64,000 nucleotides of DNA from an uncultured Planctomycetia bacterium (GTDB lineage: Bacteria > Omnitrophota > Gorgyraeia > Duberdicusellales > 4484-171), in assembly GCA_964629655.1 (NCBI GenBank), contig CAZVQU010000001.1, positions 292,056-356,055 on the forward strand. The letters run 5' to 3'. The translations under genes and the position numbers were made by a program. Under the pieces are notes generated by a model. That model made no database searches, was not told where the DNA came from, and saw only the letters and a program-made list of their open reading frames with translations. This document shows, piece by piece, positions 8,213 through 61,465 of this stretch (within the stretch, counting starts at the first letter, position 1; each line of letters starts with the position of its first letter).

Positions 8213-9082
8213 CTAAATAATAAAAATTTTGTTTCTCAAGGCAGCCTTCCAGATAAGAAACCTCTCATAAATATAAACAAAATATTTAAGAAAACCGTAG
8301 ATCAAATCATAAGGGCCGCGGTAACTAACGACAAAAATCAATACAATCGGACAGAATATAATCAATAATCTCCGAGGATAAAAAATAAACCCCTTAAGCC
8401 GAGGATGCTTTTTGTGCCTTTTTATAAAATCAACCTCGTTTACTGTGCGCTTGGCCCGATTAAGCAATCCTTCAATACTTAAACGCTTTTTTTTATGAGC
8501 CACTAACATATCAGCAGAAAAGTAGATCTTACCAACCTTTAAAACCCTATAAGCTAAGTCTCTATCTTCATGAGAGTATTCAAAAACTGGGTCAAAATAA
8601 TTTACCCTTTCTAAAATATCTCTACGATAAACTACATTACAACTCATAAACTGGCCGTCAACAAACTGATGAGTATTACAATCAGAAACTGTAACTTCAC
8701 CCTCTGACTCATAGTAAGTTTTACCGCTTACCCCAACGTATTCCCCAGTTTCTAAGACCTTTAAACCCTCCTCTATCCAATGTTTATCGGGCGCGCAGTC
8801 ACCGTCAGTAAAAAATATATACTCTCCTTTAGCTTTGCTTATCCCTAAATTACGTAACCTAGCAAGTCCGCAAGATGAGCTTTCAAAGAAATACTTAATT
8901 CTTTGATCGGAAAAAGATTTAATAATGCTGCTCGTTTTATCGGTTGAGTTATTATCAATGATTATTAACTCAAACTCCTCATAACTTTGCCTGAGTAAGG
9001 AACCAAGGAGGCTCCTAATAAATCTTTCCTCATTCTTTACAACAATGACAACGCTAATTTTCATTTTCCTCCTTCGAAACAA
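8213..9082 (-). CDS. Family 2 glycosyltransferase (GT-A)
   Basis: KISVVIVVKNEERFIRSLLGSLLRQSY..FELIIIDNNSTD and a DGD-containing FFTDGDC block; hydrophobic C-terminus. Confidence 0.7.
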   Translation of the reverse strand: MFRRRKMKISVVIVVKNEERFIRSLLGSLLRQSYEEFELIIIDNNSTDKTSSIIKSFSDQRIKYFFESSSCGLARLRNLGISKAKGEYIFFTDGDCAPDKHWIEEGLKVLETGEYVGVSGKTYYESEGEVTVSDCNTHQFVDGQFMSCNVVYRRDILERVNYFDPVFEYSHEDRDLAYRVLKVGKIYFSADMLVAHKKKRLSIEGLLNRAKRTVNEVDFIKRHKKHPRLKGFIFYPRRLLIIFCPIVLIFVVSYRGPYDLIYGFLKYFVYIYERFLIWKAALRNKIFII

Positions 9083-10149
9083 AAATAAGCTTTAAGCAAA
9101 GCTGCAGGGTCCATCTTAATGCTTGTTTCTAAAAAACAGGCGTGTGTACAAGCACAATTTTTTATTTTCTCAAACATATCCTGAGCATTAGGAGAATTTA
9201 AAACTTTTTTTAAATCATAATCCGTACTTCGTATATTTCCCACGGCTTTAGTTAACTCACATAATTTTACATCGCCGTTCGGCTCTAAAACCGCTAGGGC
9301 ATTTCCGGCCTGGCATTTAAAAGGAAGCTGTCTGCCTTCAAGAACGCTAGAATAGACCATGTAGAGATACCTCATTTTATTGGTCACCAAAGAACCAAAA
9401 ATTTTATTACTCATTCTCTTTTTGTTCCAAAAAGAATAAAAAGGCATCAATTGTTCTGAAAGGTCTCGCCATTGTTTGGCCGAAGGGGCTGCTAAATCTT
9501 GATCGTAAGGTTTACCCCGCACCGGAGATGGCCCGTGACTGTCAACCGATAACTCATTCTTAATGAATTCAGCCAACATAATCATCTCATTTATATTTAT
9601 GTTATTAACTACTGATATTATATTTACAGTTAAATTATCAAATTTCTCCCTTAAAGGAGCCAGCCTCTCTGTGGTCTTTATGACTTTTTCAAAACTTCCC
9701 TGGACACCTTTAATTTTATCATGCGTCTTTGCAAATCCATCCAGAGGCAAAGAAAGGATGAGTTCAGTATTTGGGCATTTAGCCAATATTTTATCTACAT
9801 AATAGCTTATCTTATCAGAATAGAAACCATTTGTCGGAAGGTGAATAAGGTTAACTCCGTTTTTCCGACAGAATATCTCACATATTTCCGGCAAATCATC
9901 TCTTAAAAACGGCTCCCCCCCGGATAAAAGTAATTTGCTAAACCTACCGAGAGAAAAAGACACTTTGGCAATCTCGTCTATGGTTAGTTCCGCAACATTA
10001 TTCATTGTACTTGCGTTCATATAATCCACATAGAAACATGTCTTACATCTAAAATTACACCGGTATGTTACTGAAAATATCAATTCATCTAACTTGTTTT
10101 TATGATGATAATATCTGGAAAAAGACTGCAGTAATCTAGACAGCTTCAC
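9061..10149 (-). CDS. Radical SAM enzyme with C-terminal SPASM/twitch-like Cys-rich domain
   Basis: CNFRCKTC (CxxxCxxC) near the N-terminus, LLSGGEP glycine-rich SAM motif, and a C-terminal cysteine cluster (CQAG...C..., CACTHAC). Confidence 0.7.
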   Translation of the reverse strand: MKLSRLLQSFSRYYHHKNKLDELIFSVTYRCNFRCKTCFYVDYMNASTMNNVAELTIDEIAKVSFSLGRFSKLLLSGGEPFLRDDLPEICEIFCRKNGVNLIHLPTNGFYSDKISYYVDKILAKCPNTELILSLPLDGFAKTHDKIKGVQGSFEKVIKTTERLAPLREKFDNLTVNIISVVNNININEMIMLAEFIKNELSVDSHGPSPVRGKPYDQDLAAPSAKQWRDLSEQLMPFYSFWNKKRMSNKIFGSLVTNKMRYLYMVYSSVLEGRQLPFKCQAGNALAVLEPNGDVKLCELTKAVGNIRSTDYDLKKVLNSPNAQDMFEKIKNCACTHACFLETSIKMDPAALLKAYFCFEGGK

Positions 10150-12442
10150 TCTTCACCTCCCGACCCCATATACAAGCTAAATTCTGTAAAAATATATCAG
10201 AATTATATCTTTCCTCTATTAACCTTTTATTAGCTTCGCCAATTTTTTCACACAAAAGAGTATTATTTAATAGAGACAATATTGCTTTTGATAGATTTTT
10301 TGTATCATTGGGCCTGACAAAAAGACAATTTTTATCCTGCTCCAGCATTTCAGCTAATGCCCCGACAGGAGTAGTTATCACCGGCAACCCAAAAGACATA
10401 GCTTCTAAAACTACCAATCCACAACCTTCCGAATAACTGGGAAATACAAATATATCAGCCTCTAAAAATCTTATAGACTTTTCTACCCCGGATACTTCGG
10501 GATATATTTTAACATAATCCTTAAGATTATTTTCCATGATGAAACTATTGATTTTTGAAAATCCAAAGTGAGGCTCTGGAATAAATATTACATTGCGTTC
10601 AATGTTTACAGGTTGCCCGCACAAAACGAATTCAACAGGATTTTTATATTTCTCCATAACATCAGGAATGGCTTTAACTAAATCCAGAGCTCCTTTAGCC
10701 TTAGAAATATAACCCATAAAAAGAATTCTTGACACTTTCTTTTTAGAAAAATTATTTTCATAGCCTTGTGGCATGTCGGGCAGTTTAGGTACGCAGTTGT
10801 ATACAAATGTAATTTTTTCCTCCCTAATAAATGTTGAAAACTGCTTTCTGAATTTATCAGCAAGTACAATTAATTTGTCGATACAACCTAATGTTAATTT
10901 GATGTATTTTTTAAAAACATTTTTTTGCATCTCGTAGAATAAATCAAAATTTCCCCCGTGAAAATGAACATAAATTTTTCTTTGAAAAAATTTACCGCTT
11001 ATAATAAATATGGAGTCACGAAGAAAACCAAATCTATTCTGAGCAAGCGGCATATATATAATATTAGGCCTGGATTGAACGATGAGCTGAATATATTTTA
11101 AAAAATTACCAAAATTATAACTTAGATTTGCAAAACTCAGCCTGCCTCTATTGGTAACGCTTGTGCTTTTTGATAATGGTAAAAAATCTATCTGAAAATC
11201 ACTCTTTAAATATTCAGATTGAATAATAGTCTCAGTAATCTTTGCTGTTCCTTCCTGAGGAGGAGGAAGATAACCAACTACCAAAATCCTAGATTTGTGT
11301 TCTAATAGCTTCTTAGTTCCTTCAGCAACAATCCTCTCGCCGATATCAGAAAAAATTACCTGCAGATTGTTTATAAAAATATCTTTGGTATACTTCTCGA
11401 GATAAGTCTTTCTATTTTTCTCTCCTATCTTTTTACGTAAATCTGAATCAGAAACTAAGATTTTTATCTTTTCAATTAACTGCTCAGGGTCTTTACTTTT
11501 TACTAAAAATCCGTTTTGGCCATCTACTATTGTTTCCGCTATAGCCCCCTTCCTTGTTGAAATAACCGGCAACCCTGCTGACATTGCTTCTAAAATAACT
11601 AGCGGCTGACCCTCGAAAGCATACGAAGTAGGTAGAAGAAAAATATCTGCCTTAGATAAAAGCTTAAACTTTTCTGCTTTACTCACAACTCCGATGAATT
11701 CAACATTTGCTTCAATGGCATTTTCTTTTATAATTCTTCTTACTTCTTTTTCATCTTGAATATTGCACCATTCTCCGGCAAATGTAAATTTGACATTTTT
11801 ATGAGTAGAAATAATCTGAGGAATTACTGCAAGGGTGTCAAATACACCTTTATCCTTAATAAAATTGCTGAGAAACAATATATTACAAACACCACCACTA
11901 TTCTTATGGCCATGGCTGTCAAGATAGTCATCGACTCCGTTCGGAACTACAAATATTCTTTCTTTCGGCACTAAACCTTTAAAAATATACTTTAAGCTTT
12001 CTCCTAATACAATAGCAGCAGAAATTCTTTCCAAGCTGAATTTAACTAATTTTTTCATTAAAAAATTTAACTTCTCATAGAAATCTTTAAAATAACCACC
12101 GTGCAAATGGACTACAATCCTTATACGCAAAAGCCGACAGGGAATTAAAAATAGAGAGTCACGTAGATAACCGAAGAAATTTTGAGAAATTGGTAAATAC
12201 ACCAGATCAGGTTTTACTTTTAAACAAATCCAAAGGGCCTTAAAAAAATGCTTAAATGCCAAAATTGTATTTACAGCGTCAAGTTTGCCCATGTTTCTTA
12301 TTTCTCTTTTATCAGTAGTATCCAAATGGATAGCTTCAAATTCATTTATTAAATGAGAGTCCAGCAGCATTTCAGTAACTACACTCATCCCCGTATAGGG
12401 TGGTGGTATCGGGCCAATAACAACTACTTTAAGCTTCTTCAT
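10136..12442 (-). CDS. Tandem-fused double GT4 (GT-B) glycosyltransferase
   Basis: Two complete GT4-like halves, each ending in an E-x7-E-type motif (EGQPLVILEAMSAGLPVIST and EGCGLVVLEAMSFGLPVITT); 768 aa. Confidence 0.75.
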   Translation of the reverse strand: MKKLKVVVIGPIPPPYTGMSVVTEMLLDSHLINEFEAIHLDTTDKREIRNMGKLDAVNTILAFKHFFKALWICLKVKPDLVYLPISQNFFGYLRDSLFLIPCRLLRIRIVVHLHGGYFKDFYEKLNFLMKKLVKFSLERISAAIVLGESLKYIFKGLVPKERIFVVPNGVDDYLDSHGHKNSGGVCNILFLSNFIKDKGVFDTLAVIPQIISTHKNVKFTFAGEWCNIQDEKEVRRIIKENAIEANVEFIGVVSKAEKFKLLSKADIFLLPTSYAFEGQPLVILEAMSAGLPVISTRKGAIAETIVDGQNGFLVKSKDPEQLIEKIKILVSDSDLRKKIGEKNRKTYLEKYTKDIFINNLQVIFSDIGERIVAEGTKKLLEHKSRILVVGYLPPPQEGTAKITETIIQSEYLKSDFQIDFLPLSKSTSVTNRGRLSFANLSYNFGNFLKYIQLIVQSRPNIIYMPLAQNRFGFLRDSIFIISGKFFQRKIYVHFHGGNFDLFYEMQKNVFKKYIKLTLGCIDKLIVLADKFRKQFSTFIREEKITFVYNCVPKLPDMPQGYENNFSKKKVSRILFMGYISKAKGALDLVKAIPDVMEKYKNPVEFVLCGQPVNIERNVIFIPEPHFGFSKINSFIMENNLKDYVKIYPEVSGVEKSIRFLEADIFVFPSYSEGCGLVVLEAMSFGLPVITTPVGALAEMLEQDKNCLFVRPNDTKNLSKAILSLLNNTLLCEKIGEANKRLIEERYNSDIFLQNLACIWGREVKSEAV

Positions 12443-12494
12443 CTTTCTTGTTTAATTTTTGTCTCTCTTGATTCACTTTTCCCTGACTTTGCCT

Positions 12495-13652
12495 TTACTC
12501 GCTATATATCCGCAAACTCTGATTGGCAATATTCTGCCAGGCCAATTTCTCGTTTACTAATTGAAGTGACCGCTCTCCATGTTTCTGAATTAAATCCGGG
12601 CTTTTTATATACTTCTCCATACTATGAGCCAACCCATCTACATCTCCACGCCTAAATTTTAATCCATTATTATATTCAAGAAGATACGAAACAGCTAAAT
12701 CATCACTTATAATCAAAGGTCTTGCCGCACCCAAAATATCTTTTACTCCTCCGAGCTTACCAGGCATTATCCCAATATCAGCCATAGAATACCACTTATA
12801 AAAATCAGACATTGGTTGCCACCCGGGAAGAATAACTCTACCACTATCTTTCAACTGACCAAAACTTTCATCTTGCGCAAATCTGCCTTCACCAATCATT
12901 AATAAAAATATATGTTTGTATTTTTTAGTTAAAATTTTAAAAGCGTTTATTAAATCTGCTAATGATTTACTCTTCTCAAACACTCCGGAAAATACAAAAA
13001 CTATATCCTCTTTGCCAATAGCATATTTTTTCCTTATCTTTTCCCGCTCTTGGCGAGAAAAAAATATTTTCTCATTATCTACACCTAAAGGAAGAAGTTG
13101 CATCTTCTCCTGCGGTATTCCGAAATACGAATTAAGGCAATATCGCGAATAAGGATTTACCGGAAGAAATACAAAATTTCTCCTTAACATCATTGGAATT
13201 ATTAGTTTTTTTATGAAGCCAAAAAAGTATATAAATTTATGAAACTTTTTCAAATCAAAATTACCATTATCTATGTGGCTATCAACAAATATCTTAACCC
13301 TATCTTTATTGGCAAAATTAGTTGCCAATAACTGCCATGTTGGCAGAACCCTGATATTATGCAAATGTATCACCTCTGGTTTAAAATCCTCAATTTCTTT
13401 TTTAAGGCCTAAATACCAATTCTGTTCTGTAGGAAATTGGATATACAGACTCTTCAGCCTCTTTATCTTTAACGACCGGTCATAGTAAGTGATATCCTTA
13501 TTACTACCCTTAATCGGTTTGCGTTTCTTTAAATAATGCTTACTGCATAATATGCGTACTTCATTGCCAAACCCCGCCTGATAAAAGGGAAGGTAATTCT
13601 CCTGATATCCCATGCCTTCCATAAACCAATTCATTATGTGTAAAATCTTCAT
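12495..13652 (-). CDS. GT4-family glycosyltransferase
   Basis: MKILHIMNWFMEGMGYQEN...; the 385 aa GT-B layout has a C-terminal nucleotide-sugar-binding region. Confidence 0.65.
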   Translation of the reverse strand: MKILHIMNWFMEGMGYQENYLPFYQAGFGNEVRILCSKHYLKKRKPIKGSNKDITYYDRSLKIKRLKSLYIQFPTEQNWYLGLKKEIEDFKPEVIHLHNIRVLPTWQLLATNFANKDRVKIFVDSHIDNGNFDLKKFHKFIYFFGFIKKLIIPMMLRRNFVFLPVNPYSRYCLNSYFGIPQEKMQLLPLGVDNEKIFFSRQEREKIRKKYAIGKEDIVFVFSGVFEKSKSLADLINAFKILTKKYKHIFLLMIGEGRFAQDESFGQLKDSGRVILPGWQPMSDFYKWYSMADIGIMPGKLGGVKDILGAARPLIISDDLAVSYLLEYNNGLKFRRGDVDGLAHSMEKYIKSPDLIQKHGERSLQLVNEKLAWQNIANQSLRIYSE

Positions 13653-13693
13653 GATTAATAAATTACAAAATTGCTATCAGTGGCTTTGTCGGC

Positions 13694-14419
13694 CTATCTC
13701 TTGATCAGTTCAATCGCCTTCTCGGCAAAACGCTTGCCAAGTATCCTGGATCCATCAACAGAGCAGTGAAGGCTATTTTTAATTTCCTTACCTTCCTTAT
13801 TTACGCCATCATTCAATTCATCGGTGTCTACCCAGACGCCGCGTGGGCTAGCTTCTGCAAATTCCACCTGAACTTTGCGCACCATCATCCAGTGAGGGTA
13901 TCTCTCATTATTCATTCCGAAATCGCTAATGCGGCCGATGACAAAGTTAATGTCATTGCGCCCCAAATCCTTACCGAGCTGATTAAGAAGCCCTTTCAAG
14001 CTGGTAGCATAGTCCACCATCTGACCATATCTTTTCATTGCGTCCGCCTCACCTTGCATCCAGATAAAGGTAACCGCCTTAACCTTCTTGCCCTTGATTG
14101 CAGCATTAACCTTAGTCATCAGACGACCATACAGCATACCGGATGCCCCCGGTTTATCGCCTTTCGCTGGTTTGTACCAACCTCCAATTGTGCGGCCGCC
14201 GTGAGCGTCCTTGACAACAATCACGTTGTCTTTGCCGAATTCTGCTTCCACAGCAGGCGTGAACGACGTATTGGGATTAAGACTCTCCATATTCGACTGC
14301 CCGGAGAGGATAAAAAGGTATTTTTCCTGCTCACCCCCGTTGGCGTACGAGATTAAAGCGATTGTGGCCAACACAATCATAAATAAATATTTCATCTCAT
14401 TCCTCTCTTTCCACGTCAT
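13694..14419 (-). CDS. Secreted SASA/SGNH-type carbohydrate esterase (sialate O-acetylesterase-like)
   Basis: Signal-peptide-like N-terminus (MKYLFMIVLATIALISYANG), then FILSGQSNMES, the GQSNM nucleophile block of the SASA/DUF303 esterase family. Confidence 0.5.
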   Translation of the reverse strand: MTWKERNEMKYLFMIVLATIALISYANGGEQEKYLFILSGQSNMESLNPNTSFTPAVEAEFGKDNVIVVKDAHGGRTIGGWYKPAKGDKPGASGMLYGRLMTKVNAAIKGKKVKAVTFIWMQGEADAMKRYGQMVDYATSLKGLLNQLGKDLGRNDINFVIGRISDFGMNNERYPHWMMVRKVQVEFAEASPRGVWVDTDELNDGVNKEGKEIKNSLHCSVDGSRILGKRFAEKAIELIKR

Positions 14420-14452: not shown

Positions 14453-15409
14453 TCATATTGATTTATATTCTTCACAAAGACGGCAAGTAGAACACAAGTT
14501 TCTCCTTTCGTCCTTTGTTGTCCGCCCCTCCCATATTTGTGAAAGGCTATTCTTTTCCAAATTTCCCACAAATAAATCTTCATTATGATAAGGATTGAAT
14601 CGACAACTGCAAATTCTTGCATATCCATCCCAACTCACCAAACACTCAAACATTCGGAAACAAGGACGGCATCTATACCGCACAGAAGGAGCAAGGCTCA
14701 TGCCGTTTAGAAGATTCTTTTGTGTAATTACCCCACCCCAAACGTAGTATCTTGTTAAAAACTCAACCTTTTTCCTGTCAATAAAGGGCTCAACGTATTC
14801 CTTGTAATCCGGCAAACACAAAACCTCTTTTGTGGGTATATCGCTACGGAAAGCAAGGGTTATATCCGCAATATTGCCAAGATCTTTATTCGCAACAAGA
14901 AGGTTTTTTAATCCTACTAGTAGCTTATCATAGTCTTTACTTCGATATATCCGTTCAAACTTTTCTCTTTTCAAGGGAGCGGTTGAAATAATTATTTTAA
15001 GCCCACTATTGAGGATGATCTGAGGAGAGAATTTGTGCAAAAAAATTCCGTTTGTTCGTAAACAACCACTGGGAAAGTTAAAGGACTTTATTGTTTCAAT
15101 CCTTTTAGAAAATTTAGGATCAACTAAGGGGTCACCCACTAAAGACCCCAGTTGAATAAACTTTCCATCCATTTGTTTATATTCGGTTAGAGCTTTATTA
15201 AATATCTCATCAGACATAAAACCTGTTCCGCGTGTTTGATATTGATATGCGCAAAAAATACAGTTGGCATTACAAATATTGGTTGTTTCAAGATGCAATT
15301 TACCTGGTGGCCTTTTTTCAAGATACTGCCAAGGGGTAAATTTGGTTAGAGTGATAAAGTCTTTGATAACACGTTTCAAATTCAAAAATTTGTGGTTAAG
15401 TAATTTCAT
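14453..15409 (-). CDS. Radical SAM enzyme with SPASM-type C-terminal Cys cluster
   Basis: CNANCIFC (CxxxCxxC); C-terminal CRPCFRMFEC...CSCRF...CSTCRLC cysteine-rich region. Confidence 0.7.
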   Translation of the reverse strand: MKLLNHKFLNLKRVIKDFITLTKFTPWQYLEKRPPGKLHLETTNICNANCIFCAYQYQTRGTGFMSDEIFNKALTEYKQMDGKFIQLGSLVGDPLVDPKFSKRIETIKSFNFPSGCLRTNGIFLHKFSPQIILNSGLKIIISTAPLKREKFERIYRSKDYDKLLVGLKNLLVANKDLGNIADITLAFRSDIPTKEVLCLPDYKEYVEPFIDRKKVEFLTRYYVWGGVITQKNLLNGMSLAPSVRYRCRPCFRMFECLVSWDGYARICSCRFNPYHNEDLFVGNLEKNSLSQIWEGRTTKDERRNLCSTCRLCEEYKSI

Positions 15410-15452: not shown

Positions 15453-17090
15453 TTATTGAATAACTTCTTGTTGCGGTATTTCTAATAACCACCAATCAGG
15501 CGTTTCTCCATAATAAAGTTTTATACCCCTTAATTCTTTTTCGTGATTGCCCCAAGAAAATTTACTCAAAACTTTAAAACCATTTTCTTGCCAGATAGCA
15601 TCTAATTTTGTTCCAGTATCTTGGTAAACAACAATATAGCCAGCTTTCCATTCCTTAATATTCTTAAGTACGGAATGTATATCACGCCCCCAGAAATTAC
15701 GAGCATCTTGATAGTTTGATTCAGCAACAGCCCACCAGTCAGGAATAAAATGAATTCTCTTCTTTGCAGTTATATAAAGCAGTAACTGAAGCAAAGCGCG
15801 GTATCCGTCAAAAATCCTTTCAAGTGCCCCACCGGGATTATTGAAAGCCATAAGAATTCTTTCATTCGGCTTTACAGATACTAGGAAATCCTCCATAGCC
15901 TCTCTAAGCTTCTTAATAGAAAAAGGGTGAGCCTCAGGGACAACATCCAAAACCTTCTTCGTGTATGGAAAAGGAATAAGCAATGGCAGGGGTGAAACAA
16001 CAAGCCAGAAAGAAACAAGAACCAACGAATCTGGAGTTTTAAGCGTGTACATTGTAGCTAAACTAAACATCAGCATATGCATAGACTGCACATCGGCGAA
16101 CCGCGCAAAAGTTGAATTTATTACAAATATAGTTATACCGGCCAAAAATAAGACTGGAATCTGTCTGGTTATCAAATAAAGAATAATAAAAAACTGCGAA
16201 TATAATGCTAAAAAATATACTCTTGCCATAATGGTCTTTAAAGGATAGGTACGCGTATAGCGAGCAGTCTTTCTATGGATCCCTACAGTTTTCATTAAAT
16301 TTAAAGTAGAAAGTTTTATATTCTTGGAAACTAAACAAGGATAGAGATGTATTAGCAACTTCAAACCAGCCGGTAACAAAGCAAGAATAGGAAATAAGCT
16401 ATTACTATTAATTGCACTAACAAGAGAGATAATGCCAGCTATAAATACAACCGTAAAACTGCTAAGACTTGCTAAAAGCCAGGCTACAGCAACAATAATC
16501 CAACTCTCAGTAAATAAGCCATAAAGACCTAAAGGGAAAAAAAGCCAACCCAGAACATTGTAGTTTTGCAAAGCAAAAGTATTTGCATAGAAAGTCGTAC
16601 TAATTGCCGCAAGTGAGATGACAACTATGACCCAATAAAGGTCAGCTTGCTGTAGCCAGGCTAAATGCACGATAAGCCAGCCAAACATGCCAAATAAAAG
16701 AACACCCGCGCTAGCTTTCCAATAAGGACGCAAAGAAAACGACCAATAATAAAACCACCTTGATAAAGGATAATTACCAACCCCAATATAAGAACAAGTT
16801 TCTCTAGATCCATGTCTGGATAAAATTAAAGCAAAAATCCAGTAAGGCAAGTAGCCTAGTCCGGCATAGGGCATAAAATGATGGTAATCCTTATTGCCTT
16901 GTCTTATTAATATCCTGCAACTCCACAAGGCTTTCCCTAGACGTATTGGCGTTGCTACTAAAGCTGTCAAAGGATATAAAATTACCCTTAAGAAGCCAAA
17001 ATATCCAAATCGACTTATGAAATCAGCTAGTGATTTATTCATTTGCATTCTGGCATAAAAAATATCGCGAATTAGCGTATGTGATGACAC
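15453..17090 (-). CDS. Polytopic inner-membrane protein (about 10-12 TM) with a C-terminal soluble domain; possible Wzy-type polymerase or GT-C
   Basis: The first 370 aa are hydrophobic and the last 170 aa hydrophilic. No recognisable catalytic motif; the assignment rests on context only. Confidence 0.3.
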   Translation of the reverse strand: MSSHTLIRDIFYARMQMNKSLADFISRFGYFGFLRVILYPLTALVATPIRLGKALWSCRILIRQGNKDYHHFMPYAGLGYLPYWIFALILSRHGSRETCSYIGVGNYPLSRWFYYWSFSLRPYWKASAGVLLFGMFGWLIVHLAWLQQADLYWVIVVISLAAISTTFYANTFALQNYNVLGWLFFPLGLYGLFTESWIIVAVAWLLASLSSFTVVFIAGIISLVSAINSNSLFPILALLPAGLKLLIHLYPCLVSKNIKLSTLNLMKTVGIHRKTARYTRTYPLKTIMARVYFLALYSQFFIILYLITRQIPVLFLAGITIFVINSTFARFADVQSMHMLMFSLATMYTLKTPDSLVLVSFWLVVSPLPLLIPFPYTKKVLDVVPEAHPFSIKKLREAMEDFLVSVKPNERILMAFNNPGGALERIFDGYRALLQLLLYITAKKRIHFIPDWWAVAESNYQDARNFWGRDIHSVLKNIKEWKAGYIVVYQDTGTKLDAIWQENGFKVLSKFSWGNHEKELRGIKLYYGETPDWWLLEIPQQEVIQ

Positions 17091-47033: not shown

Positions 47034-47036
47034 TCT

Positions 47037-51408: not shown

Positions 51409-51420
51409 ACATAGTAAGTT

Positions 51421-52494: not shown

Positions 52495-52495
52495 A

Positions 52496-53617: not shown

Positions 53618-53671
53618 AATACTACCTCCTACAGCTTTAGATCCAAGAATCTACACCTAGCATTAGCTAAA

Positions 53672-54829
53672 TTATATATCATAAAATTTTTTCCGTATAA
53701 TATTAGTTATATTGTAGCGTTTAAGAATATTTTTAATTCTGACGGCGGCATTTCCATCACCGTATAGGTTCTTAATGTTTTTAAGCCTTCTCTGAAAATA
53801 TTTAGAGTATATTTTTTTGAAAGCATCGGTAAGTGCGTCTTTCGTAGGCGCACAATCAATTACGCTTTTTGCTTTAATTCTTCCTTTTTGTCTGTCTCCG
53901 ATATTTACTGTGGCAATTTTAAAACTTGGAGCCTCACCAATACCACTTGATGAGTTACCTACAACCGCATCAACAAATTGCATGGTGGACAGATAATTAA
54001 GCTGCCCCATAGAAGTAAAAGCAGTCGCTTTTTGAGGGTTTTTCTTTACATATTCATCGATCAATTGATTAATTTTCCTGCCTCCTGAATCAGCATTTGC
54101 TTTTGTAAAAACTATATTGGTATTTTTTAATCCATTCAGTACATTCAATATTTTCTTAAATTGGGTACCCGATGTATTGTTTTCCAAAGTAACAGGATGA
54201 AAAGTAACCAAAATATTAAATCTATTAAATTTTAAATTCAACCTTTTTTCTAGCTCTTTTTTCGACAAAAAATCCTGATTTTTTATATTATCTAAACTTA
54301 ACGAACCTACACGAAAAACTCGACTGGGATCCTCACCTAGCTGGATAACTCTCCTCCTATACTTCTCTGTAGAAGTAAAATGTAACTGGCTCATTTTAGT
54401 TATGGAGTGGCGAAAGGCATCGTCAATAGCACCTTCAGTCAACTCACCTCCGCAAATATGAGCAATAGGAATTCTTTGTATGTGAGCCGCTACGGCTGCA
54501 CTAAAAATTTCAAATCTATCGCCTAAAATAACCACCATATCCGGCTTTAGTTTTAAGTAGGCTTTAGAGATTCTAACTAGAGCATGAGCCATGGATTTAG
54601 TAATACCTATATTGCTATCTGAACTTAAAACTATACTTACTTTTTTATCGATTTTAAAACCGTCCTGGATAATTTCTTGATATGTTAAGCCAAATTCACT
54701 AGATAAGTGAGTTCCAGTTACAACTAACTGTAATTTTAAACCGCGATCTTCCTTAATCTCTTTAATCAATGGCCGCAAAATCCCATATTCAGCCCGAGAA
54801 CCTGTGACTACACAAATCTTCCTACTCAT
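53672..54829 (-). CDS. neuC: UDP-N-acetylglucosamine 2-epimerase, hydrolysing (NeuC/LegG-like)
   Basis: ICVVTGSRAEYGILRPL..., ILGDRFEIFSAAVAAHIQRIPIAHICGGELTEG (the GDRxE ... HIxGGE NeuC pattern); 4-nt overlap with the neuB-like gene. Confidence 0.8.
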   Translation of the reverse strand: MSRKICVVTGSRAEYGILRPLIKEIKEDRGLKLQLVVTGTHLSSEFGLTYQEIIQDGFKIDKKVSIVLSSDSNIGITKSMAHALVRISKAYLKLKPDMVVILGDRFEIFSAAVAAHIQRIPIAHICGGELTEGAIDDAFRHSITKMSQLHFTSTEKYRRRVIQLGEDPSRVFRVGSLSLDNIKNQDFLSKKELEKRLNLKFNRFNILVTFHPVTLENNTSGTQFKKILNVLNGLKNTNIVFTKANADSGGRKINQLIDEYVKKNPQKATAFTSMGQLNYLSTMQFVDAVVGNSSSGIGEAPSFKIATVNIGDRQKGRIKAKSVIDCAPTKDALTDAFKKIYSKYFQRRLKNIKNLYGDGNAAVRIKNILKRYNITNIIRKKFYDI

Positions 54830-55830
54830 AGTTCTATTGGTTGATCCACCAAGAAATCTTTCTTGGCAGTTTTTCCTATTACCTTATCCCACTCCATGGG
54901 ATTTATACCTTTTCCCGGCCTTTTTGTAATAATGTTTTCTTCGGTGAAAATATCTCCTTCTTTTATATTTTTTGCTGCTATTATACTTTTTCTGACTATA
55001 GGCCTATTTTTAAGCTCTGAGGGCGAAGTTTCTTTTACCCCATCACCTAGCGCCATTTCAACGTTTCGTATACCCACTATCATAGTCTTCAATTCATCGG
55101 GTTCTAATGATATTTTATGGTCGGGTCCTTCCATGTTTCTATCCAGTGTAAAATGTTTTTCTATAACTCTTGCACCTAAAGCCACGGCAGCAATAGGCAT
55201 TTCTATACCAAGAGTATGGTCAGAATACCCCACAGCCACTTTAAAGGTTTCTCCTATTGTAACCATTGCTCTTAAATTTACATCTTTACAGGGAGTTGGA
55301 TATTCTGTGTTGCACTGTAAAATAGTTATTTTTGCCTTTTCAGTTCCTGCTTTTATTAAAATATCTAATGCATTCTCTATCTCTTTCAAATCTGCCATGC
55401 CCGTCGACATTATGATTTCTTTCCCCAAACTTCCGACCTTTCTTAAAAGGGGAAGATTGGTTATTTCTCCTGATGGAACTTTAAAAATCTTAAGCCCGAG
55501 TCCGTTAAGCATGTCTACACTTTCCAGATCAAATGGGGAAGACAAAAATATAATACCTTTTTTCTCACAGTAGTTGAAAAGTTCTTCGTGAACTTGAGCA
55601 GTTAATTCCAACTTTTTTACCATCTCTAGCTGGGACTCCTCCCTATTGGTCGTCATTTGCTGATACTCAGCTTTTGGCGCGTATCTACTTATAGCCTTTC
55701 CGCTTTTAAACGACTGAAACTTTATAGCATCTGCCTTGGCTTCCAAGGCAACATCAACCATTTTTTTCGCTATTTCGGCATTGCCATTATGACTGATGCC
55801 TGCCTCCGCTATAATAAAAACTTTTTTCAT
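54826..55830 (-). CDS. neuB: Nonulosonic acid synthase (N-acetylneuraminate synthase family; NeuB/LegI/PseI-like)
   Basis: KVFIIAEAGISHNGNAEIAKKMVDVALEAKADAIKFQSF (the IIAEAG.NHNG NeuB signature); C-terminal SAF/antifreeze-like domain. Confidence 0.85.
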   Translation of the reverse strand: MKKVFIIAEAGISHNGNAEIAKKMVDVALEAKADAIKFQSFKSGKAISRYAPKAEYQQMTTNREESQLEMVKKLELTAQVHEELFNYCEKKGIIFLSSPFDLESVDMLNGLGLKIFKVPSGEITNLPLLRKVGSLGKEIIMSTGMADLKEIENALDILIKAGTEKAKITILQCNTEYPTPCKDVNLRAMVTIGETFKVAVGYSDHTLGIEMPIAAVALGARVIEKHFTLDRNMEGPDHKISLEPDELKTMIVGIRNVEMALGDGVKETSPSELKNRPIVRKSIIAAKNIKEGDIFTEENIITKRPGKGINPMEWDKVIGKTAKKDFLVDQPIEL

Positions 55831-55930
55831 TTTGAGTTACCTATAAAGTGCGTTAAACGTACAAGTTTAGCCCTTTCATTCTATAACTATGCAGGATTGA
55901 GCCGAACTGTAGGGACTTGGAATCGGGCAA

Positions 55931-55949
55931 TTTTCAAACAGTTTGAAAA
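55931..55949. promoter_or_regulatory. Perfect 19-bp palindrome in the 255-bp neuB-upstream intergenic gap; candidate operator or regulator binding site
   Basis: ttttcaaac a gtttgaaaa: 9-bp perfect inverted arms around a single central base. It lies about 100-120 bp upstream of the neuB-like start at 55830, in the only intergenic gap over 130 bp in the window. Confidence 0.3.
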
Positions 55950-56085
55950 ATTTTTCCTAAGATCTACCTCCTTTCCTGAAGCGTAAGATTTAGTCTGGAT
56001 ATTTTGCCCCCTCATATTCCATTCTCCTTTTCTGCATACTAAATTACCTTATACTTACCCATTGAAAAAGCTCCAACATTTATTC

Positions 56086-56736
56086 CTAAAATATTGTCAT
56101 AGACTTGTTCTTAATGTCGGGGAAAAAGAAAGAACGATTAGCTATATTTTGATCAACAGTACCCCCTGCTTTTATCTTGTTTTCAGAACCAATGCTCATA
56201 TTAGGCAAAATATTGCTTGAGGTTCCAAAAAAGTTATTATTATCTATTCTCGCATGGCCGGCAACTCGCACATTGGGAGAAAAAACGTTATTACTGCCAA
56301 TACTGCAACCATGAGCTACGGTAGTGTGGTAGTTTAATATATTGAAATCGCCTATGCTTACATTAGGTCCCACTATACAGTAAGGAGCTATTATATTCCC
56401 CAACCCAATATTTGTATTTGCACCTACTAAGACAGTATGATGTATAAGGTTAATGAACTCTGCGTTTTTTTTATTTAAAATATCTATAACCTTATTTCTT
56501 ATTTCTTGAATTCCGATAGCTATTATTACGTAGTCGTTCGGACCCAGTGTATATGTCCTTTCATCTCCAAGCAAAGGTTTCTCGAACTTATATTTTTTAA
56601 AATCCTTACTGCTGATGCTTAAATATCCTTTAATTTGATACTGATACAAGCTAAGATTATGCTGTCGATTATTATTTATATATTCTGTTACTTCAGCAGC
56701 TAATCCCCCAGTTCCAACGATAATAATATCTTTCAA
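56086..56736 (-). CDS. PglD/NeuD/LegH-family hexapeptide-repeat sugar N-acyltransferase
   Basis: N-terminal Rossmann-like MKDIIIVGTGGLAAEVTEYI, then left-handed beta-helix hexapeptide repeats (IGLGNIIAPYCIVGPNVSIGDFNILNYHTTV...). Confidence 0.7.
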   Translation of the reverse strand: MKDIIIVGTGGLAAEVTEYINNNRQHNLSLYQYQIKGYLSISSKDFKKYKFEKPLLGDERTYTLGPNDYVIIAIGIQEIRNKVIDILNKKNAEFINLIHHTVLVGANTNIGLGNIIAPYCIVGPNVSIGDFNILNYHTTVAHGCSIGSNNVFSPNVRVAGHARIDNNNFFGTSSNILPNMSIGSENKIKAGGTVDQNIANRSFFFPDIKNKSMTIF

Positions 56737-56840
56737 CCTCTTCCTCCTTAATATTTAATCGTATAGTAAAAGCCTGACCCCAAACACTAACTTAGCTATT
56801 ATCAATCCTCAAATATTTCCTTTAATTCAATAGAAAATAA

Positions 56841-57548
56841 TTATAACATAACTCCGCCAAGATATACCGTCTGACCGGTAATAAAGCTACTTTCGTCCTT
56901 AATAAAAAAATCGATAACGTTTGCAATGTCTATATACTTTCCTGTCCTCTTTATTGCTTGAAGGTTAATAACTTTCTCGATCGCCTCCTTTGGGAATATT
57001 TGCAACATATCCGTACCAATTACGGCTGGACCGATAGCATTGCAGGTAATATCAAAAGGAGCAAATTCTTTAGCAAAAATCTGGGTTAACTTATCAATAG
57101 CGGCTTTCGAAGCAGCGTATGCAGATTCTCCTTCAAGTTTTAACGGCACCGCCCCCGAAGTAAAATTAACTATCCGTCCATATTTTCGCTTAGACATAAT
57201 TTTTGCAGCCTCTCTGCAAAAAAGGAATGTTCCAAAAGTATTGGTCTTGAAAACTTCCTCAATTGTGGAATAAGGAGTCAGTATGCTATGATTAAAAGAA
57301 GCTGTACCCGCGTTATTGATTAAGATGTCAAGCCTACGATATTTCCGCCTAATATCGTTGAACATCGTCACTACCTCTTTCTCATTCTTGATGTCTAAGC
57401 AAAAATGTCTATAGCAGTCGGATTCTATATTGCTCTCATGCCTGCTGCAACCTATTATCATATATCCACGTTCAAGATAGTGTTCCACAAGGTATCTTCC
57501 AATCCCTCTGCTGGTACCAGTAACAAGCATTATCTTTTTTTCTTTCAT
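56841..57548 (-). CDS. Short-chain dehydrogenase/reductase, FabG-like 3-oxoacyl-ACP reductase
   Basis: IMLVTGTSRGIGRYL (TGxxxGIG), NNAG, YAASKAA (YxxxK). Confidence 0.8.
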   Translation of the reverse strand: MKEKKIMLVTGTSRGIGRYLVEHYLERGYMIIGCSRHESNIESDCYRHFCLDIKNEKEVVTMFNDIRRKYRRLDILINNAGTASFNHSILTPYSTIEEVFKTNTFGTFLFCREAAKIMSKRKYGRIVNFTSGAVPLKLEGESAYAASKAAIDKLTQIFAKEFAPFDITCNAIGPAVIGTDMLQIFPKEAIEKVINLQAIKRTGKYIDIANVIDFFIKDESSFITGQTVYLGGVML

Positions 57549-57841
57549 TTTTTTGCCTTTTCTAATAGGACCATAATATAATCTACGAACGAACCAACGC
57601 TTCTAAAAGGGCTATCCTTATATGAAAAAACTTTTTCATCGGCAATAGCAGTGTTTACCAAAAATTCATCTGCAATCTTCTGCTCTACGTCAGTAATAAA
57701 TGTGACAAAGGCCATTGAATCAAAAATTCCTTGGCTACCAAACAATTCCATCTTTTCTGAAATGTCTTCATTTTGATTACTCTGCAATGCAGACACCTCT
57801 CTAATGCTTTCAAAAATTATCTCCTTTATTTTTTTACGCAT
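57545..57841 (-). CDS. Acyl carrier protein
   Basis: 98 aa, acidic. GIFDSMAFVTF carries the phosphopantetheine-attachment Ser in a D-S-(L/M) context. It overlaps the FabG-like gene by 4 nt and is flanked by the FabH-like gene. Confidence 0.6.
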   Translation of the reverse strand: MRKKIKEIIFESIREVSALQSNQNEDISEKMELFGSQGIFDSMAFVTFITDVEQKIADEFLVNTAIADEKVFSYKDSPFRSVGSFVDYIMVLLEKAKK

Positions 57842-57872
57842 ATTTTACTCTCTTGCTCAAACGTCTCTTCTT

Positions 57873-58856
57873 TTATAATCGAATTAACGTCGTCCCCCAT
57901 GATAATCCACCACCAAAAACAACTAACATAATTAAATCATTACTCGCTGCTTTTTTACTCTTAATTAGCTCGTCTAGCCCTATTAATGTTGATGCCGCTG
58001 CAGTATTTCCATACTTGTCAACGTTTACAACAAACTTATCATAATCAAAGTCTAACCGTGCAGACAACTCTTTAATGATGTTTATATTTGCCTGATGGGG
58101 AATTATAAATTTAATTTGTTCTTTTCTGATTCCCGTTACCGTTAAAATTTCGTTGACAACCTCTACCCCTTTATTAATAGCAAATTCATACACCTGTTTC
58201 CCATACATCCTAAAATAAAAATCATTATGATTCTTGATCCGATAACCGGGCAACATCGTTCCTCCACCCGGAACCTGTATTGTATCAGCGCCCGAACCAT
58301 CGCTATGTAATATAGAATGAATTATTCCGGAATCCATACCACTTGCGGCTGATAAAAGAACTGCACCTGCACCATCGCCAAAGTAAGGATAGGTAGAAAA
58401 ATCTTTTGGGTTTAAATAGCGGGAATATATTTCTGCTCCTACTACTAATACATTTTTGCAAAAGCCTGCCCTAATCATTGAGTCAGCGCCATATAATGCA
58501 AAAATTCCGCCACTACATACGGAGTTAATGTCAAAAGCAAAAGCATTAATTGCCCCTATTAAATGCTGGACTCGAGTTGCAGTTGCAGGCTGTATTCTAT
58601 CTGGAGAGGAAGTTGCAAGAATAATTGCCTCAATTTCACAAGGTTTGATAGGAGCCTTCTCGAGACAGCTTTTTGCTGCCAGAAACGCCAAATCGGATGT
58701 AGATTGATTTTCTTCTGCAAACCTACGAACTTTCACCCCTGTTTTTTGTTCAATTAAAGGAATGCTTATTTTAGGAAAGTTAGTGAGTTCATCGTTTGCA
58801 ACGACATTTTCTGGGACATAACTTCCAGTTGATACAATCTTTGATCTAATTGACAT
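57873..58856 (-). CDS. 3-oxoacyl-ACP synthase III (FabH/KAS III-like)
   Basis: IVSTGSYVPENVV..., active-site Cys in AFDINSVCSGGIFAL, C-terminal H/N region (IPHQANINII...); 327 aa. Confidence 0.8.
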   Translation of the reverse strand: MSIRSKIVSTGSYVPENVVANDELTNFPKISIPLIEQKTGVKVRRFAEENQSTSDLAFLAAKSCLEKAPIKPCEIEAIILATSSPDRIQPATATRVQHLIGAINAFAFDINSVCSGGIFALYGADSMIRAGFCKNVLVVGAEIYSRYLNPKDFSTYPYFGDGAGAVLLSAASGMDSGIIHSILHSDGSGADTIQVPGGGTMLPGYRIKNHNDFYFRMYGKQVYEFAINKGVEVVNEILTVTGIRKEQIKFIIPHQANINIIKELSARLDFDYDKFVVNVDKYGNTAAASTLIGLDELIKSKKAASNDLIMLVVFGGGLSWGTTLIRL

Positions 58857-59997
58857 ATCTAAAATCCTTGCTTGCTTTTGTTGCCACCTCTTCTATTGTC
58901 TTGCAGACACAATATATATCATCTTTGGTGTTACGTGTAGAACTTGGTAAGCATAAACCTCCGGCATAAATAGAGTAAGCATTTTTGTACTCGTCCTTTT
59001 TATATATCTTATAAGGTATAAATTCTACTACCGGCATAAAAATTCTTCGTGTGGGAACACCTTTTCTTTTTAGTGCGATTTGCAAGTTTCCTATCTCTAT
59101 TCCTCTATCAAAAGCAATGCATGTAAACCAATAACTACTCTCTGCATCCTGGAATTCTTCTTGAAAATGAATGTTATCTATATTCCCAAGTTCACTCCGG
59201 TATATATGATTGAACACCCTCTTTTTATTTAGAAACTTGTCGATTTTTTCCATCTGAGCGAGGCCTAAAGCAGCTTCAATATTCGTCATCCTATAATTAA
59301 AACCTACTTCGGAATAATAATATCTATTTGATTTACTTCGCGCCTGATTTGCTAAAAACTTTATGTGCTCTAAGCCTCTGGCATCCTCGCCTACTACCAT
59401 TCCGCCACCGCCAGTTGTGACTATCTTATTGCCGTTAAAGCTAAAACATCCGTAATCCCCAAAAGTCCCCATATTCTTTCTTCTATACTTAGCGCCCAAA
59501 CTTTCTGCGGCGTCTTCTATTACATAAAGATTATGGCGCTTAGCAATATCCATTATTATATCCATCTGGCAAGGATTGCCGTAAAGATGGACCGGTATTA
59601 TTGCTTTTGTCTTTTTGGTTATTGCTTTCTCCATCTTCTCCGGGTCAATATTCCAAGTAGCACTATCAACATCTACAAAAACTGGTTTCGCACCAACATG
59701 CACAACAGCATTAGCAGTTGCAACAAATGTTAAAACAGGAACAATTACCTCATCCTGAGAACCTATCCCGAGTTCGTATAAAGCCATAAGAAGAGCTGCT
59801 GTTCCGCTTTGGGTAGAAACAGCTTTTTTTGCCCCTAAATAGCTCCTGACCTTTTCCTCAAACTCCGAAACATATGGTCCTGCCGTAGAAACATATCCGT
59901 CATCAATGGCTCTATTCAAATACTCTTTCTCCAAACCATCAACATTTGGTGCATCCAAATGTATTTCTCTCTGCTTTGTGTCCAACTTTTTTAACAT
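58846..59997 (-). CDS. DegT/DnrJ/EryC1-family PLP-dependent sugar aminotransferase (LegC/PseC-like)
   Basis: STQSGTAALLMAL..., DAAESLGAKY, CFSFNGNKIVTTGGGG (Schiff-base Lys). Confidence 0.8.
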   Translation of the reverse strand: MLKKLDTKQREIHLDAPNVDGLEKEYLNRAIDDGYVSTAGPYVSEFEEKVRSYLGAKKAVSTQSGTAALLMALYELGIGSQDEVIVPVLTFVATANAVVHVGAKPVFVDVDSATWNIDPEKMEKAITKKTKAIIPVHLYGNPCQMDIIMDIAKRHNLYVIEDAAESLGAKYRRKNMGTFGDYGCFSFNGNKIVTTGGGGMVVGEDARGLEHIKFLANQARSKSNRYYYSEVGFNYRMTNIEAALGLAQMEKIDKFLNKKRVFNHIYRSELGNIDNIHFQEEFQDAESSYWFTCIAFDRGIEIGNLQIALKRKGVPTRRIFMPVVEFIPYKIYKKDEYKNAYSIYAGGLCLPSSTRNTKDDIYCVCKTIEEVATKASKDFRYVN

Positions 59998-60025
59998 ATC
60001 ATTTTACGTTTAATATTTTTTAAAA

Positions 60026-61465
60026 TTACTTCCCCTTAATTAAGATCTTTAATAGTATCAAGGCAGTCCGCATTTTCCTCCTAAATGACCTGCAATACTT
60101 GATATCCTGTCTTACGACAGGGAATACATAAATTAATCTAAAAATTCTATTAGGAGGTAATTTAATCAGCTTCTTAATTAAAGGCTCTAACCACTTATGC
60201 TTCACTAATAGATAAAAGAAATAATGTATGTTTATCAGTTCTGCTGCCTGCTTCAATTTTAGAGGCATTAAGACTCTGTCGCCAACGTAATAGATTTGAA
60301 ATCCAGTATCGGACTCAGAAAAATCATAATCTGGCAACAAAAAACCGGCATCCTTGGCATACTCATTGATTTCGGTTCTTGGATATGGTTGTAGAATAGT
60401 GACTCTGGCCATCTCAGGCTTAAACAACCTATTTAGTTCTACTGTTTTCATAGCAGTAGAAACGGTTTCATGAGGAACGCCGATAATATTAGCTATCTGA
60501 ACTCGTATCTTATATTTATTAAATAATCGCCCCCCCCCTACAATCTGCTTATCTGTCATATCTCTCTTCAAAATATTCTTCCTGATCCATTCATCTCCAT
60601 GCTCAATTGCAAAATCAATTCTATCGCACTTAGCTTCCTTCATTTTTTTAACCATCTCTTCATCAACTAAATCAATGCGTACGTTACACAGAAAAGGAAT
60701 ATCTATTTCCTGTTTATACCGATCTAAAAAAGTCATAAACCATTCCCTGTTGACATTAAGAGTGTCGGTAATAATCTGAAGCCATTTCATTCCATACTTA
60801 TCCCGAACATACTTAATCTCCGCAATTGCTTTGTCTACATCTAGGCAACGGATGTATTGACCTTTACCGGCATACATTTTCTTTAAGGCATTATTAAAAC
60901 AATAGGTACAACTAAAAGGGCAGCCTCTTACAAGGAATATGCTTTTAGTTGGTTCATCTCGTAATTCGAGATATTTGTCATAGTATAACTCTCTATCATA
61001 TATAGGTAACTCATTTATATCAACCAAATCACATAAATCGTTTTTATATATATTTCCATTCCTCTTTACCCACAAATTCTTAATATTAGTAAAATCGTGC
61101 CCCCTGTCAATACGGTTAGCCAACTCCAAAAAAGCATATTCTCCTTCACCGATGCATATTGCATCTAAGCACCTTTGCTTAATGACTTCCGGAAAAAAAG
61201 TAGGATGTGGACCGCCCATTATAATAAAAGCATCTGAAAATTTTCTTAATTCAACAGCCCAATTCAAAGCAAGTTTATTGTTAGCAGTCATTGTCGAAAA
61301 AGCAATAATATTAGGCTTGTAATCCAACACATCTTGGACAATATTTTTGCTTTTTGACTGGATAAACATTTCACATTGATGGCCTCCCTTTTTTAATACC
61401 GCTGAGAGAGCCATCGCTCCAAACCTAGTCCTTATTTCTCGTTGCACAAATGCGATCCTCGCCAT
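60026..61465 (-). CDS. Cobalamin-binding (class B) radical SAM enzyme
   Basis: N-terminal B12-binding-like region (MARIAFVQREIRTRFGAMALSAVLKKGGHQ), LVRGCPFSCTYC radical SAM motif; 479 aa. Confidence 0.7.
   Translation of the reverse strand: MARIAFVQREIRTRFGAMALSAVLKKGGHQCEMFIQSKSKNIVQDVLDYKPNIIAFSTMTANNKLALNWAVELRKFSDAFIIMGGPHPTFFPEVIKQRCLDAICIGEGEYAFLELANRIDRGHDFTNIKNLWVKRNGNIYKNDLCDLVDINELPIYDRELYYDKYLELRDEPTKSIFLVRGCPFSCTYCFNNALKKMYAGKGQYIRCLDVDKAIAEIKYVRDKYGMKWLQIITDTLNVNREWFMTFLDRYKQEIDIPFLCNVRIDLVDEEMVKKMKEAKCDRIDFAIEHGDEWIRKNILKRDMTDKQIVGGGRLFNKYKIRVQIANIIGVPHETVSTAMKTVELNRLFKPEMARVTILQPYPRTEINEYAKDAGFLLPDYDFSESDTGFQIYYVGDRVLMPLKLKQAAELINIHYFFYLLVKHKWLEPLIKKLIKLPPNRIFRLIYVFPVVRQDIKYCRSFRRKMRTALILLKILIKGK

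Follow-up and report, generated by a model that had tools for sequence, protein, structure and literature searches.

The subject of this analysis is a 64,000-nucleotide stretch, hereafter the window, of contig CAZVQU010000001.1 from an uncultured bacterium of the Omnitrophota, in which seven radical S-adenosylmethionine (SAM) genes, designated A to G in order of coordinate, lie within a polysaccharide locus. These seven genes appear to encode sugar- or glycan-tailoring enzymes drawn from four or more modules, each conserved separately and all brought together in one locus; the window itself appears to form the central part of a surface-polysaccharide locus of the Wzx/Wzy type, at least 85 kb long. 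We place the probability of this explanation as a whole at roughly 0.7. It is built on the domain identities of the seven proteins, the homology of E to the dehydrogenase BtrN together with the conservation of its auxiliary-cluster cysteines, the class B two-domain fold of D and synteny conserved in other genomes.

All seven open reading frames (ORFs), each on the minus strand and each with one CxxxCxxC motif, matched the Pfam model Radical_SAM (PF04055) above its gathering cut-off of 29.5, with scores of 32–80 bits. The B12-binding model PF02310 (cut-off 32.1) was exceeded by C (61.7), D (81.8), F (70.0) and G (55.5), and the SPASM model PF13186 (cut-off 21.5) by A (25.9), B (28.9) and E (49.8). 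C, D, F and G have the class B layout, in which a B12-binding Rossmann domain at the N-terminus precedes the core of the radical SAM enzyme, and form two paralogous pairs (C/D, 35 % identity; F/G, 33 % identity). C and G probably begin further downstream than listed: on identical contigs, gene callers place their starts at 25018 (524 aa) and 61447 (473 aa), respectively. An earlier note on this DNA, made from the sequence alone, had proposed seven radical SAM enzymes in these ORFs, four with B12-binding domains and three of the SPASM/twitch type, and had named profile searches as a check; the CxxxCxxC proteins do match Radical_SAM and the B12-like N-termini do exceed the PF02310 cut-off. Its description of their setting, among glycosyltransferases (GTs) and sugar-nucleotide enzymes and not next to peptide precursors, was likewise borne out. 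The neighbours are GTs, sugar-nucleotide enzymes, a Wzx flippase and NeuB/NeuC, and the non-coding gaps directly beside the radical SAM genes are at most 67 nt, so that precursor-peptide genes do not fit there.

The window contains about 55 tightly packed genes, on the minus strand throughout, with a GC content of about 36 %. It was read as part of a Wzx/Wzy-type surface-glycan cluster because a Wzx-type flippase is present; besides many GTs on the one strand, at least eight of them in the window, the locus has an initiating phosphoglycosyl transferase and membrane proteins resembling polymerases. Seven radical SAM genes among about 55 would correspond to a binomial probability of about 1e-4 if 2 % of genes were radical SAM genes, but conserved synteny elsewhere is the stronger evidence. 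To define it, 80 genomic loci around homologues of D were used, with ORFs labelled by BLASTP against the window proteins. Homologues of window sugar or GT genes were held by 43 of the 55 D-centred loci of at least 10 kb. Linkage to sugar genes recurs in unrelated organisms, which ties the genes functionally to sugar pathways and answers the refuting condition named in the earlier note: they are not accidental neighbours.

The D family is large: at E<=1e-20 it has over 5,800 members, and almost all of them come from lineages that are uncultured and mostly anaerobic. It was found that a cassette of AsnB, 2-epimerase, D, C and the glycosyltransferase GT2_b (module 2) recurs in Chitinivibrionales, Desulfarculaceae, a deltaproteobacterium and Elusimicrobiales. 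The D/C cassette is present in loci L003, L044, L062 and L074, and locus L183 has the genes in the same order as the window, with identities of 78 % (AsnB), 74 % (epimerase), 71 % (D), 72 % (C) and 67 % (GT2_b). L183 also has an orthologue (57 %) of the nine-transmembrane-segment protein of the window, while its Wzx is just 37 % identical. The AlphaFold2 model of D had a pLDDT of 92.7 and matched TsrM, AprD4, OxsB, MgmA, CysS and TokK in Foldseek; the matches to TsrM, OxsB, MgmA, CysS and TokK extended across both domains.

The two C-terminal transmembrane segments of GT2_b and its best curated match, ArnC, suggest a polyprenyl-phosphate sugar route for the D/C cassette. In such a route the 2-epimerase and AsnB would prepare an N-acetylhexosamine (HexNAc) derivative, the paralogous B12-domain enzymes D and C would modify it, and the ArnC-like GT2_b would load the modified HexNAc onto polyprenyl phosphate. 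A protein with multiple transmembrane segments would then transfer the modified sugar outside the cytoplasm, and the nine-segment protein is a candidate for this periplasmic transferase.

E aligned with BtrN (PDB 4m7t), the 2-deoxy-scyllo-inosamine dehydrogenase of the butirosin pathway, over nearly its full length (E=1.3e-30; residues 29–272 against 19–247). Like BtrN it keeps the CxxxCxxC motif and four auxiliary-cluster cysteines: C214 and C232 align with BtrN cysteines, C276 and C279 follow, and all four were invariant in 26 homologues. By homology, E is a BtrN-type dehydrogenase with a twitch rather than a full SPASM domain, and is predicted to be neither a methylase, an epimerase nor a cross-linker; the methylation, epimerisation or cross-linking chemistry that the earlier note had envisaged does not hold for this enzyme.

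Among 44 metagenome loci of at least 5 kb, the neighbours of E homologues were SDR (26 loci), KdsB-like CMP-transferase (25), HisC-like aminotransferase (13), GFO oxidoreductase (7) and HpcH aldolase (6) genes, and a KdsB-like gene was within 3 kb of E in 21 of the E-homologue loci. In locus L182 the 2-hydroxyacid dehydrogenase (67 %), IMPase (68 %), E (64 %), aminotransferase (70 %) and methyltransferase (65 %) all had orthologues. The BtrN-type/KdsB-like cassette is common in marine and groundwater metagenomes.

In this ulosonic-acid module (module 1), the HpcH-type aldolase and the KdsB-like cytidylyltransferase would make and activate a 3-deoxy-ulosonic acid resembling Kdo (3-deoxy-D-manno-octulosonate). 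E, via a 5'-deoxyadenosyl radical, would oxidise a secondary alcohol to a ketone, with the electron leaving through the auxiliary cluster. The HisC-like aminotransferase paired with E would then form an amine, as in butirosin biosynthesis, where a transaminase step follows BtrN, and F, the methyltransferases and the GFO and PGDH-like oxidoreductases would add more modifications. For E, the mechanism with the best support is oxidation of an alcohol to a ketone and then transamination. The setting differs from that of BtrN, since E occurs in surface-glycan loci with KdsB-like CMP-transferase, aldolase and SDR genes, and because of these neighbours its substrate is probably an ulosonic acid or other sugar and not an aminocyclitol. 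No aminoglycoside (2-deoxystreptamine pathway) genes were found in the window or among the window-gene homologues near relatives of E.

G belongs to a nonulosonic-acid module (module 3). In all three contigs examined (L176, L177 and L178), orthologues of G (52–65 % identity) lie directly after NeuB-NeuC and before a pyridoxal phosphate enzyme, which fits the suggestion of the earlier note that the nonulosonic acid itself may be a target of radical chemistry; one of these contigs also has a Maf-type (MptE-like) gene. The module resembles the legionaminic pathway of Campylobacter (PtmE/LegB/LegC/LegH/LegG/LegI/LegF) in its CBS+NTP-transferase, 4,6-dehydratase, DegT aminotransferase, PglD-like acetyltransferase, NeuC-like, NeuB and CMP-transferase genes, with in addition a WbuX-type N-acetyl-sugar amidotransferase for the acetimidoyl group (52496-53617, minus strand; 368 bits against a cut-off of 203). 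It differs in adding G and a FabH/ACP-like/ketoreductase trio. A legionaminic-acid-type pathway is predicted, in which G would alter the nonulosonic-acid skeleton or the N-acyl group. The ORF resembling an acyl carrier protein (ACP) and its neighbours may build a 3-hydroxyacyl N-substituent; this ORF had no PP-binding match, even with relaxed Pfam settings. No radical SAM enzyme was mentioned in the nonulosonic-acid papers retrieved by literature search.

Two further observations concern these modules. The WbuX gene has no HisH/HisF-like partner genes in the window, and in L176 such genes follow a similar module. In L177 a gene of the MbnB/TglH/ChrH family (DUF692; 15793-16599) is present in the nonulosonic-acid cassette, beside a second B12-domain radical SAM gene, and is a further unusual oxidative enzyme in a sugar context.

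For the SPASM proteins A and B (module 4), A overlaps both GT2_a and the double GT4, suggesting that the three are translationally coupled. Its PDB sequence search matched only the N-terminal regions of MoaA and GDGT-MAS, and its single-sequence AlphaFold model had a pLDDT of 38, too low for fold comparison. The sole full-length relative found (30 % identity) is from Parabacteroides and is followed by a glycosyltransferase. The B family had 105 cluster representatives at E<=1e-30, and the nearest relatives (41–43 % identity) were either next to FkbM or GDSL genes or in a locus resembling those for lipopolysaccharide core that contains another B paralogue. B had no relative in the PDB sequence search and no match in the plasmid search, and viral-contig scans gave nothing useful for either protein. 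A and B would act together with the adjoining glycosyltransferases and esterase.

With regard to the chemistry of C, D, F and G, class B methyltransferases (MgmA/QCMT 9ccb, TsrM, TokK, CysS and GenK/Fom3-type) share domain order, fold and size with the four window proteins, which nevertheless match no equivalog model. Their scores fall short of the cut-offs for the named class B equivalogs HpnJ, BchE, PhpK, AprD4, HpnR, MgmA family and KedN5, the best being 189 for C (HpnJ, cut-off 577.6), 222 for D (BchE, cut-off 481) and at most 110 for F and G. It is conceivable, though on balance unlikely, that all four are cobalamin-independent AprD4-like dehydratases or other non-methylating enzymes, yielding with a partner reductase deoxy or rearranged sugars rather than C-methyl sugars. 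AprD4, the radical SAM 1,2-diol dehydratase of apramycin biosynthesis, acts on a sugar, has the same two-domain size and fold, gave the best mutual template-modelling score to the D model (0.76/0.78) and was the top PDB sequence match for all four proteins; it carries a B12-like Rossmann domain without cobalamin (PMC12931638). Redox partners are also at hand, the GFO oxidoreductase for F and the 4,6-dehydratase and SDR for G. However, the AprD4 sequence alignments span the radical SAM core only, whereas the N-terminal domains of the window proteins align to the true cobalamin binders OxsB, TokK and CysS and score 55–82 bits for PF02310 (cut-off 32). With the NCBIfam AprD4 model (cut-off 500) the four proteins scored 51–109, in every case less than with the HpnJ and BchE models, and MgmA, a true B12 methylase, was the second-best PDB match for C, D and F and the third for G. 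Methylation, dehydration and rearrangement are thus all possible for these enzymes, and methylation is not the only option because the best solved sequence relative, AprD4, lacks cobalamin. Of the proposals in the earlier note, the tailoring of surface sugars by radical chemistry has good support from synteny, while GenK/Fom3-type C-methylation was not established and stands as one option, given that no NCBIfam cut-off was reached and that the closest solved sequence relative is cobalamin-free. A 2026 review of B12-dependent radical SAM enzymes contains no glycan example (PMC12931638), and our literature search turned up no B12 or SPASM radical SAM enzyme characterised in pathways for nonulosonic acids, capsule or O-antigen, yielding besides the review only a gene-content study of Brachyspira.

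A different target, the lipid carrier or a glycolipid instead of the sugar itself, seems improbable for any of the enzymes, although A, C and D would be the foremost candidates. Tes and HpnH, which act on lipids, are among the numerous and equally weak NCBIfam matches of A, whose PDB matches include the GDGT-MAS synthase, and in Parabacteroides the gene after the A homologue is a GT with a lipid-glycosylation annotation; C and D are linked to a GT2 of the polyprenyl-phosphate type, and the best curated match of C is HpnJ, from the hopanoid pathway. The lipid-enzyme scores are far under their cut-offs and involve generic core regions only, and the cassettes also hold nucleotide-sugar enzymes (epimerase, AsnB), pointing to sugar chemistry. 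We consider it very improbable that A and B are peptide or protein maturases, whether for ribosomally synthesised and post-translationally modified peptides (RiPPs) or of the anaerobic sulfatase-maturating enzyme (anSME) type, or cofactor enzymes merely located in the locus. Weak NCBIfam matches to peptide maturases (WgkB, PapB, mycofactocin) and to anSME, and the sulfotransferases of the locus, would agree with such roles. Nevertheless, a RiPP or anSME role was rejected for lack of a RiPP recognition element (RRE), a precursor ORF and a sulfatase. The CxxxCxxC motif begins at residue 31 in A and 46 in B, leaving an N-terminal extension of 30–45 aa that is too short for an RRE of about 90 aa, and neither protein has a PqqD/RRE Pfam match. 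The genes around them overlap or are 33–43 nt apart, the window contains no sulfatase, A scored 42 for the anSME model TIGR03942 (cut-off 349), and homologues of B recur in glycan loci.

The reading of all seven genes as sugar- or glycan-tailoring enzymes in conserved modules has several points against it. None of the seven proteins reached an NCBIfam curated cut-off, and the top PDB sequence match for C, D, F and G is AprD4 (6fd2; E-values of 3e-11 to 2e-25). The case for A comes from a single context, and F-like genes were near E in just 3 of the 44 loci. G in the window lies between the 4,6-dehydratase and an aminotransferase and not after NeuC, so its step in the pathway is uncertain, and module 2 has no uronic-acid dehydrogenase to give AsnB a carboxylate. 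Neighbour labels were drawn from the window's own proteins only, in loci picked around a radical SAM gene, and all substrates and all chemical steps, including cobalamin use and C-methylation, are ones that we infer.

The density of radical SAM genes, which the earlier note had called highly unusual, was overstated. At least two radical SAM genes were present in 28 of the 55 D-centred loci of at least 10 kb and at least three in 18, with densities of up to 0.37 per kb compared to 0.11 per kb in the window, counts that are biased upward by the choice of loci around a radical SAM gene. Eight radical SAM genes were seen in 21 kb of a Bacteriovoracaceae metagenome-assembled genome (MAG; locus L053), six in an Omnitrophota MAG (L055) and five in an Elusimicrobiales MAG (L025), and three B12-domain genes in a row followed by a flavin adenine dinucleotide oxidoreductase were seen repeatedly in Elusimicrobia.

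Plasmids of cultured anaerobes resemble the window in having several radical SAM genes interleaved with GT, epimerase, AsnB, sialate O-acetylesterase and NeuB/PseF-type genes. Four radical SAM genes accompany AsnB, PseF, a sialate O-acetylesterase and a NeuB-family gene on Solidesulfovibrio carbinolicus pDCAR1, and plasmid 1 of Lawsonia intracellularis carries two, set among SIS, methyltransferase and GT2 genes. The 36-kb plasmid of Brachyspira hyodysenteriae, whose gene content correlates with virulence, has six among GT and rfb genes (PMC4267127). These islands differ from the window in being smaller, with protein identities to the window of just 20–37 %. The arrangement is not unique to the window, and its cassettes recur in many anaerobes.

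Table 1. Radical SAM genes and associated features of the window (coordinates of the 64,000-nt stretch)
Feature	Coordinates	Strand	Basis or remark
GT2_a, double GT4 (768 aa), GT4 and SASA-family esterase, flanking A and B	8213..14419	-	Pfam
A: radical SAM + partial SPASM	9061..10149	-	C31/35/38; six C-terminal Cys
B: radical SAM + full SPASM, between nine-transmembrane-segment protein and SASA esterase	14453..15409	-	C46/50/53; eight C-terminal Cys
Nine-transmembrane-segment protein, without family match	15453..17090	-	57 % orthologue travels with D/C cassette
Wzx-type flippase	18917..20356	-	Polysacc_synt match
GT2_b: ArnC/GtrB-like GT2, two C-terminal transmembrane segments; conserved partner of C and D	22492..23469	-	best curated match ArnC
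C: B12-binding domain + radical SAM; paralogue of D	23444..25078	-	Pfam, NCBIfam
D: B12-binding domain + radical SAM	25085..26503	-	Pfam, AlphaFold2 model
UDP-GlcNAc 2-epimerase	26519-27610	-	upstream part of D/C cassette
AsnB-like amidotransferase	27631-29520	-	upstream part of D/C cassette
IMPase-family phosphatase + PGDH-like 2-hydroxyacid dehydrogenase, downstream of E	38750..40424	-	orthologues near E in L182 (68 % and 67 %)
E: BtrN-like twitch radical SAM dehydrogenase	40455..41375	-	CxxxCxxC C46/50/53; four C-terminal (auxiliary-cluster) Cys, twitch-like: C214, C232, C276, C279
F: B12-binding domain + radical SAM; paralogue of G	41376..42917	-	abuts E, overlaps GFO oxidoreductase
Rest of ulosonic-acid module	42914..50696	-	domain/family matches; co-occurrence with E homologues
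GFO/IolG-like oxidoreductase, TagF-like transferase, FkbM methyltransferase, two further methyltransferases	within 42914..50696	-	ulosonic-acid module
KdsB-like CMP-transferase	45293-46084	-	301 bits against cut-off 255
HpcH aldolase	47037-47819	-	ulosonic-acid module
HisC-like aminotransferase	49617-50696	-	ulosonic-acid module
Legionaminic-type nonulosonic-acid module	50710..59997	-	domain/family matches
PseF-like CMP-transferase, CBS+NTP-transferase, WbuX, NeuC-like, NeuB, PglD-like, SDR, FabH-like, DegT aminotransferase	within 50710..59997	-	
ACP-like 98-aa ORF, between FabH-like and ketoreductase genes	57545-57841	-	ACP-like FDSMAFV motif
G: B12-binding domain + radical SAM, inside nonulosonic-acid module	60026..61465	-	Pfam
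NDP-sugar 4,6-dehydratase, directly upstream of G	61533..62531	-	Pfam

Comparison with related contigs indicated that the surface-glycan cluster extends beyond the window at both ends. Past the window start (below coordinate 1) are an initiating Bac_transf enzyme and a Wzy_C protein, and past coordinate 64000 are a PFTS_polysacc protein, an amidase, an adenosine 5'-phosphosulfate (APS) kinase and a further sulfotransferase. Both window ends cut a gene: positions 1-761 (minus strand) hold about 253 aa of the N-terminal part of the 471-aa Bac_transf initiating phosphoglycosyl transferase, and the 477-aa TTG-start ORF listed at 62545-64000 (minus strand) is the C-terminal part of a 622-aa PFTS_polysacc-family protein that starts past the window end. 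Beyond the Bac_transf gene, related contigs have VanZ, a metallo-beta-lactamase-fold gene and the Wzy_C gene. The sequence was met only in metagenome assemblies and one 762-kb NCBI contig, and a scan of representative genomes gave no close relative, the best match, at 58 % identity, being to a Chitinivibrionales MAG. A Leptospira rfb origin, at first suspected from the GC content of 36 %, the gene order on a single strand, the nonulosonic-acid genes and a match to TIGR04326, was rejected on this result.

The remaining genes of the window include GT2, GT4 and WecG glycosyltransferases, three proteins of the UDP-GlcNAc 2-epimerase family, FnlA-like, RmlD-like and 4,6-dehydratase enzymes, DegT aminotransferases and AsnB. 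A Wzy_C-like protein of 586 aa in the window had a weak Pfam match. As there are one Wzx, two Wzy-like proteins and a TagF-like transferase, the cluster, which runs past both window ends, may encode more than one glycan and may not be the single locus named in the earlier note. Two sulfotransferases are present at 20368-22401 (minus strand), and the APS kinase and third sulfotransferase were seen just past coordinate 64000 on L090; the glycan is probably sulfated.

Three further proteins, all on the minus strand, gave weak or sub-threshold matches. A protein with six transmembrane segments (29592-30638) had a weak sub-threshold PMT_2 match with relaxed Pfam settings and could be a GT-C-like transferase; a 559-aa protein (17167-18846) had merely faint GH130 and BNR-like similarity; and a 653-aa protein (36756-38717) scored 234 bits for TIGR04326 (cut-off 250), a surface-carbohydrate family that takes its name from the Leptospira locus tag LIC13510. 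The 255 nt at 55831-56085 that separate NeuB from the PglD-like gene, the largest intergenic gap of the window, may represent an internal promoter region; gene callers place a 42-aa ORF there on related contigs. Neither a cobalamin riboswitch nor any other RNA was found when the window was scanned with Rfam and for tRNAs.

Most of what is known of radical SAM chemistry on sugars comes from antibiotic pathways (BtrN, AprD4, GenK). Here the same enzyme types occur in cassettes devoted to surface glycans, to nonulosonic acids and to Kdo-like acids, in numerous lineages that are uncultured and for the most part anaerobic, consistent with recruitment of antibiotic-type radical SAM sugar enzymes into conserved surface-glycan cassettes. 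We tentatively propose, at less than even odds, that the window encodes three or more radical transformations so far undescribed for sugars of the cell surface, each defining a widespread pathway. The G family in NeuB/NeuC cassettes would produce a C-alkylated or otherwise carbon-skeleton-modified nonulosonic acid; the BtrN-type dehydrogenase and aminotransferase would produce an amino-ulosonic acid activated by the KdsB-like enzyme; and the B12-domain pair would modify a HexNAc delivered via a polyprenyl-phosphate GT2. The cultured carriers Solidesulfovibrio carbinolicus, Lawsonia and Brachyspira make these predictions testable. If the predicted reactions are true, substrates would be assigned to thousands of unannotated radical SAM genes, and the glycome of bacteria would gain new monosaccharides, which would bear on antigenicity and on recognition by phages.

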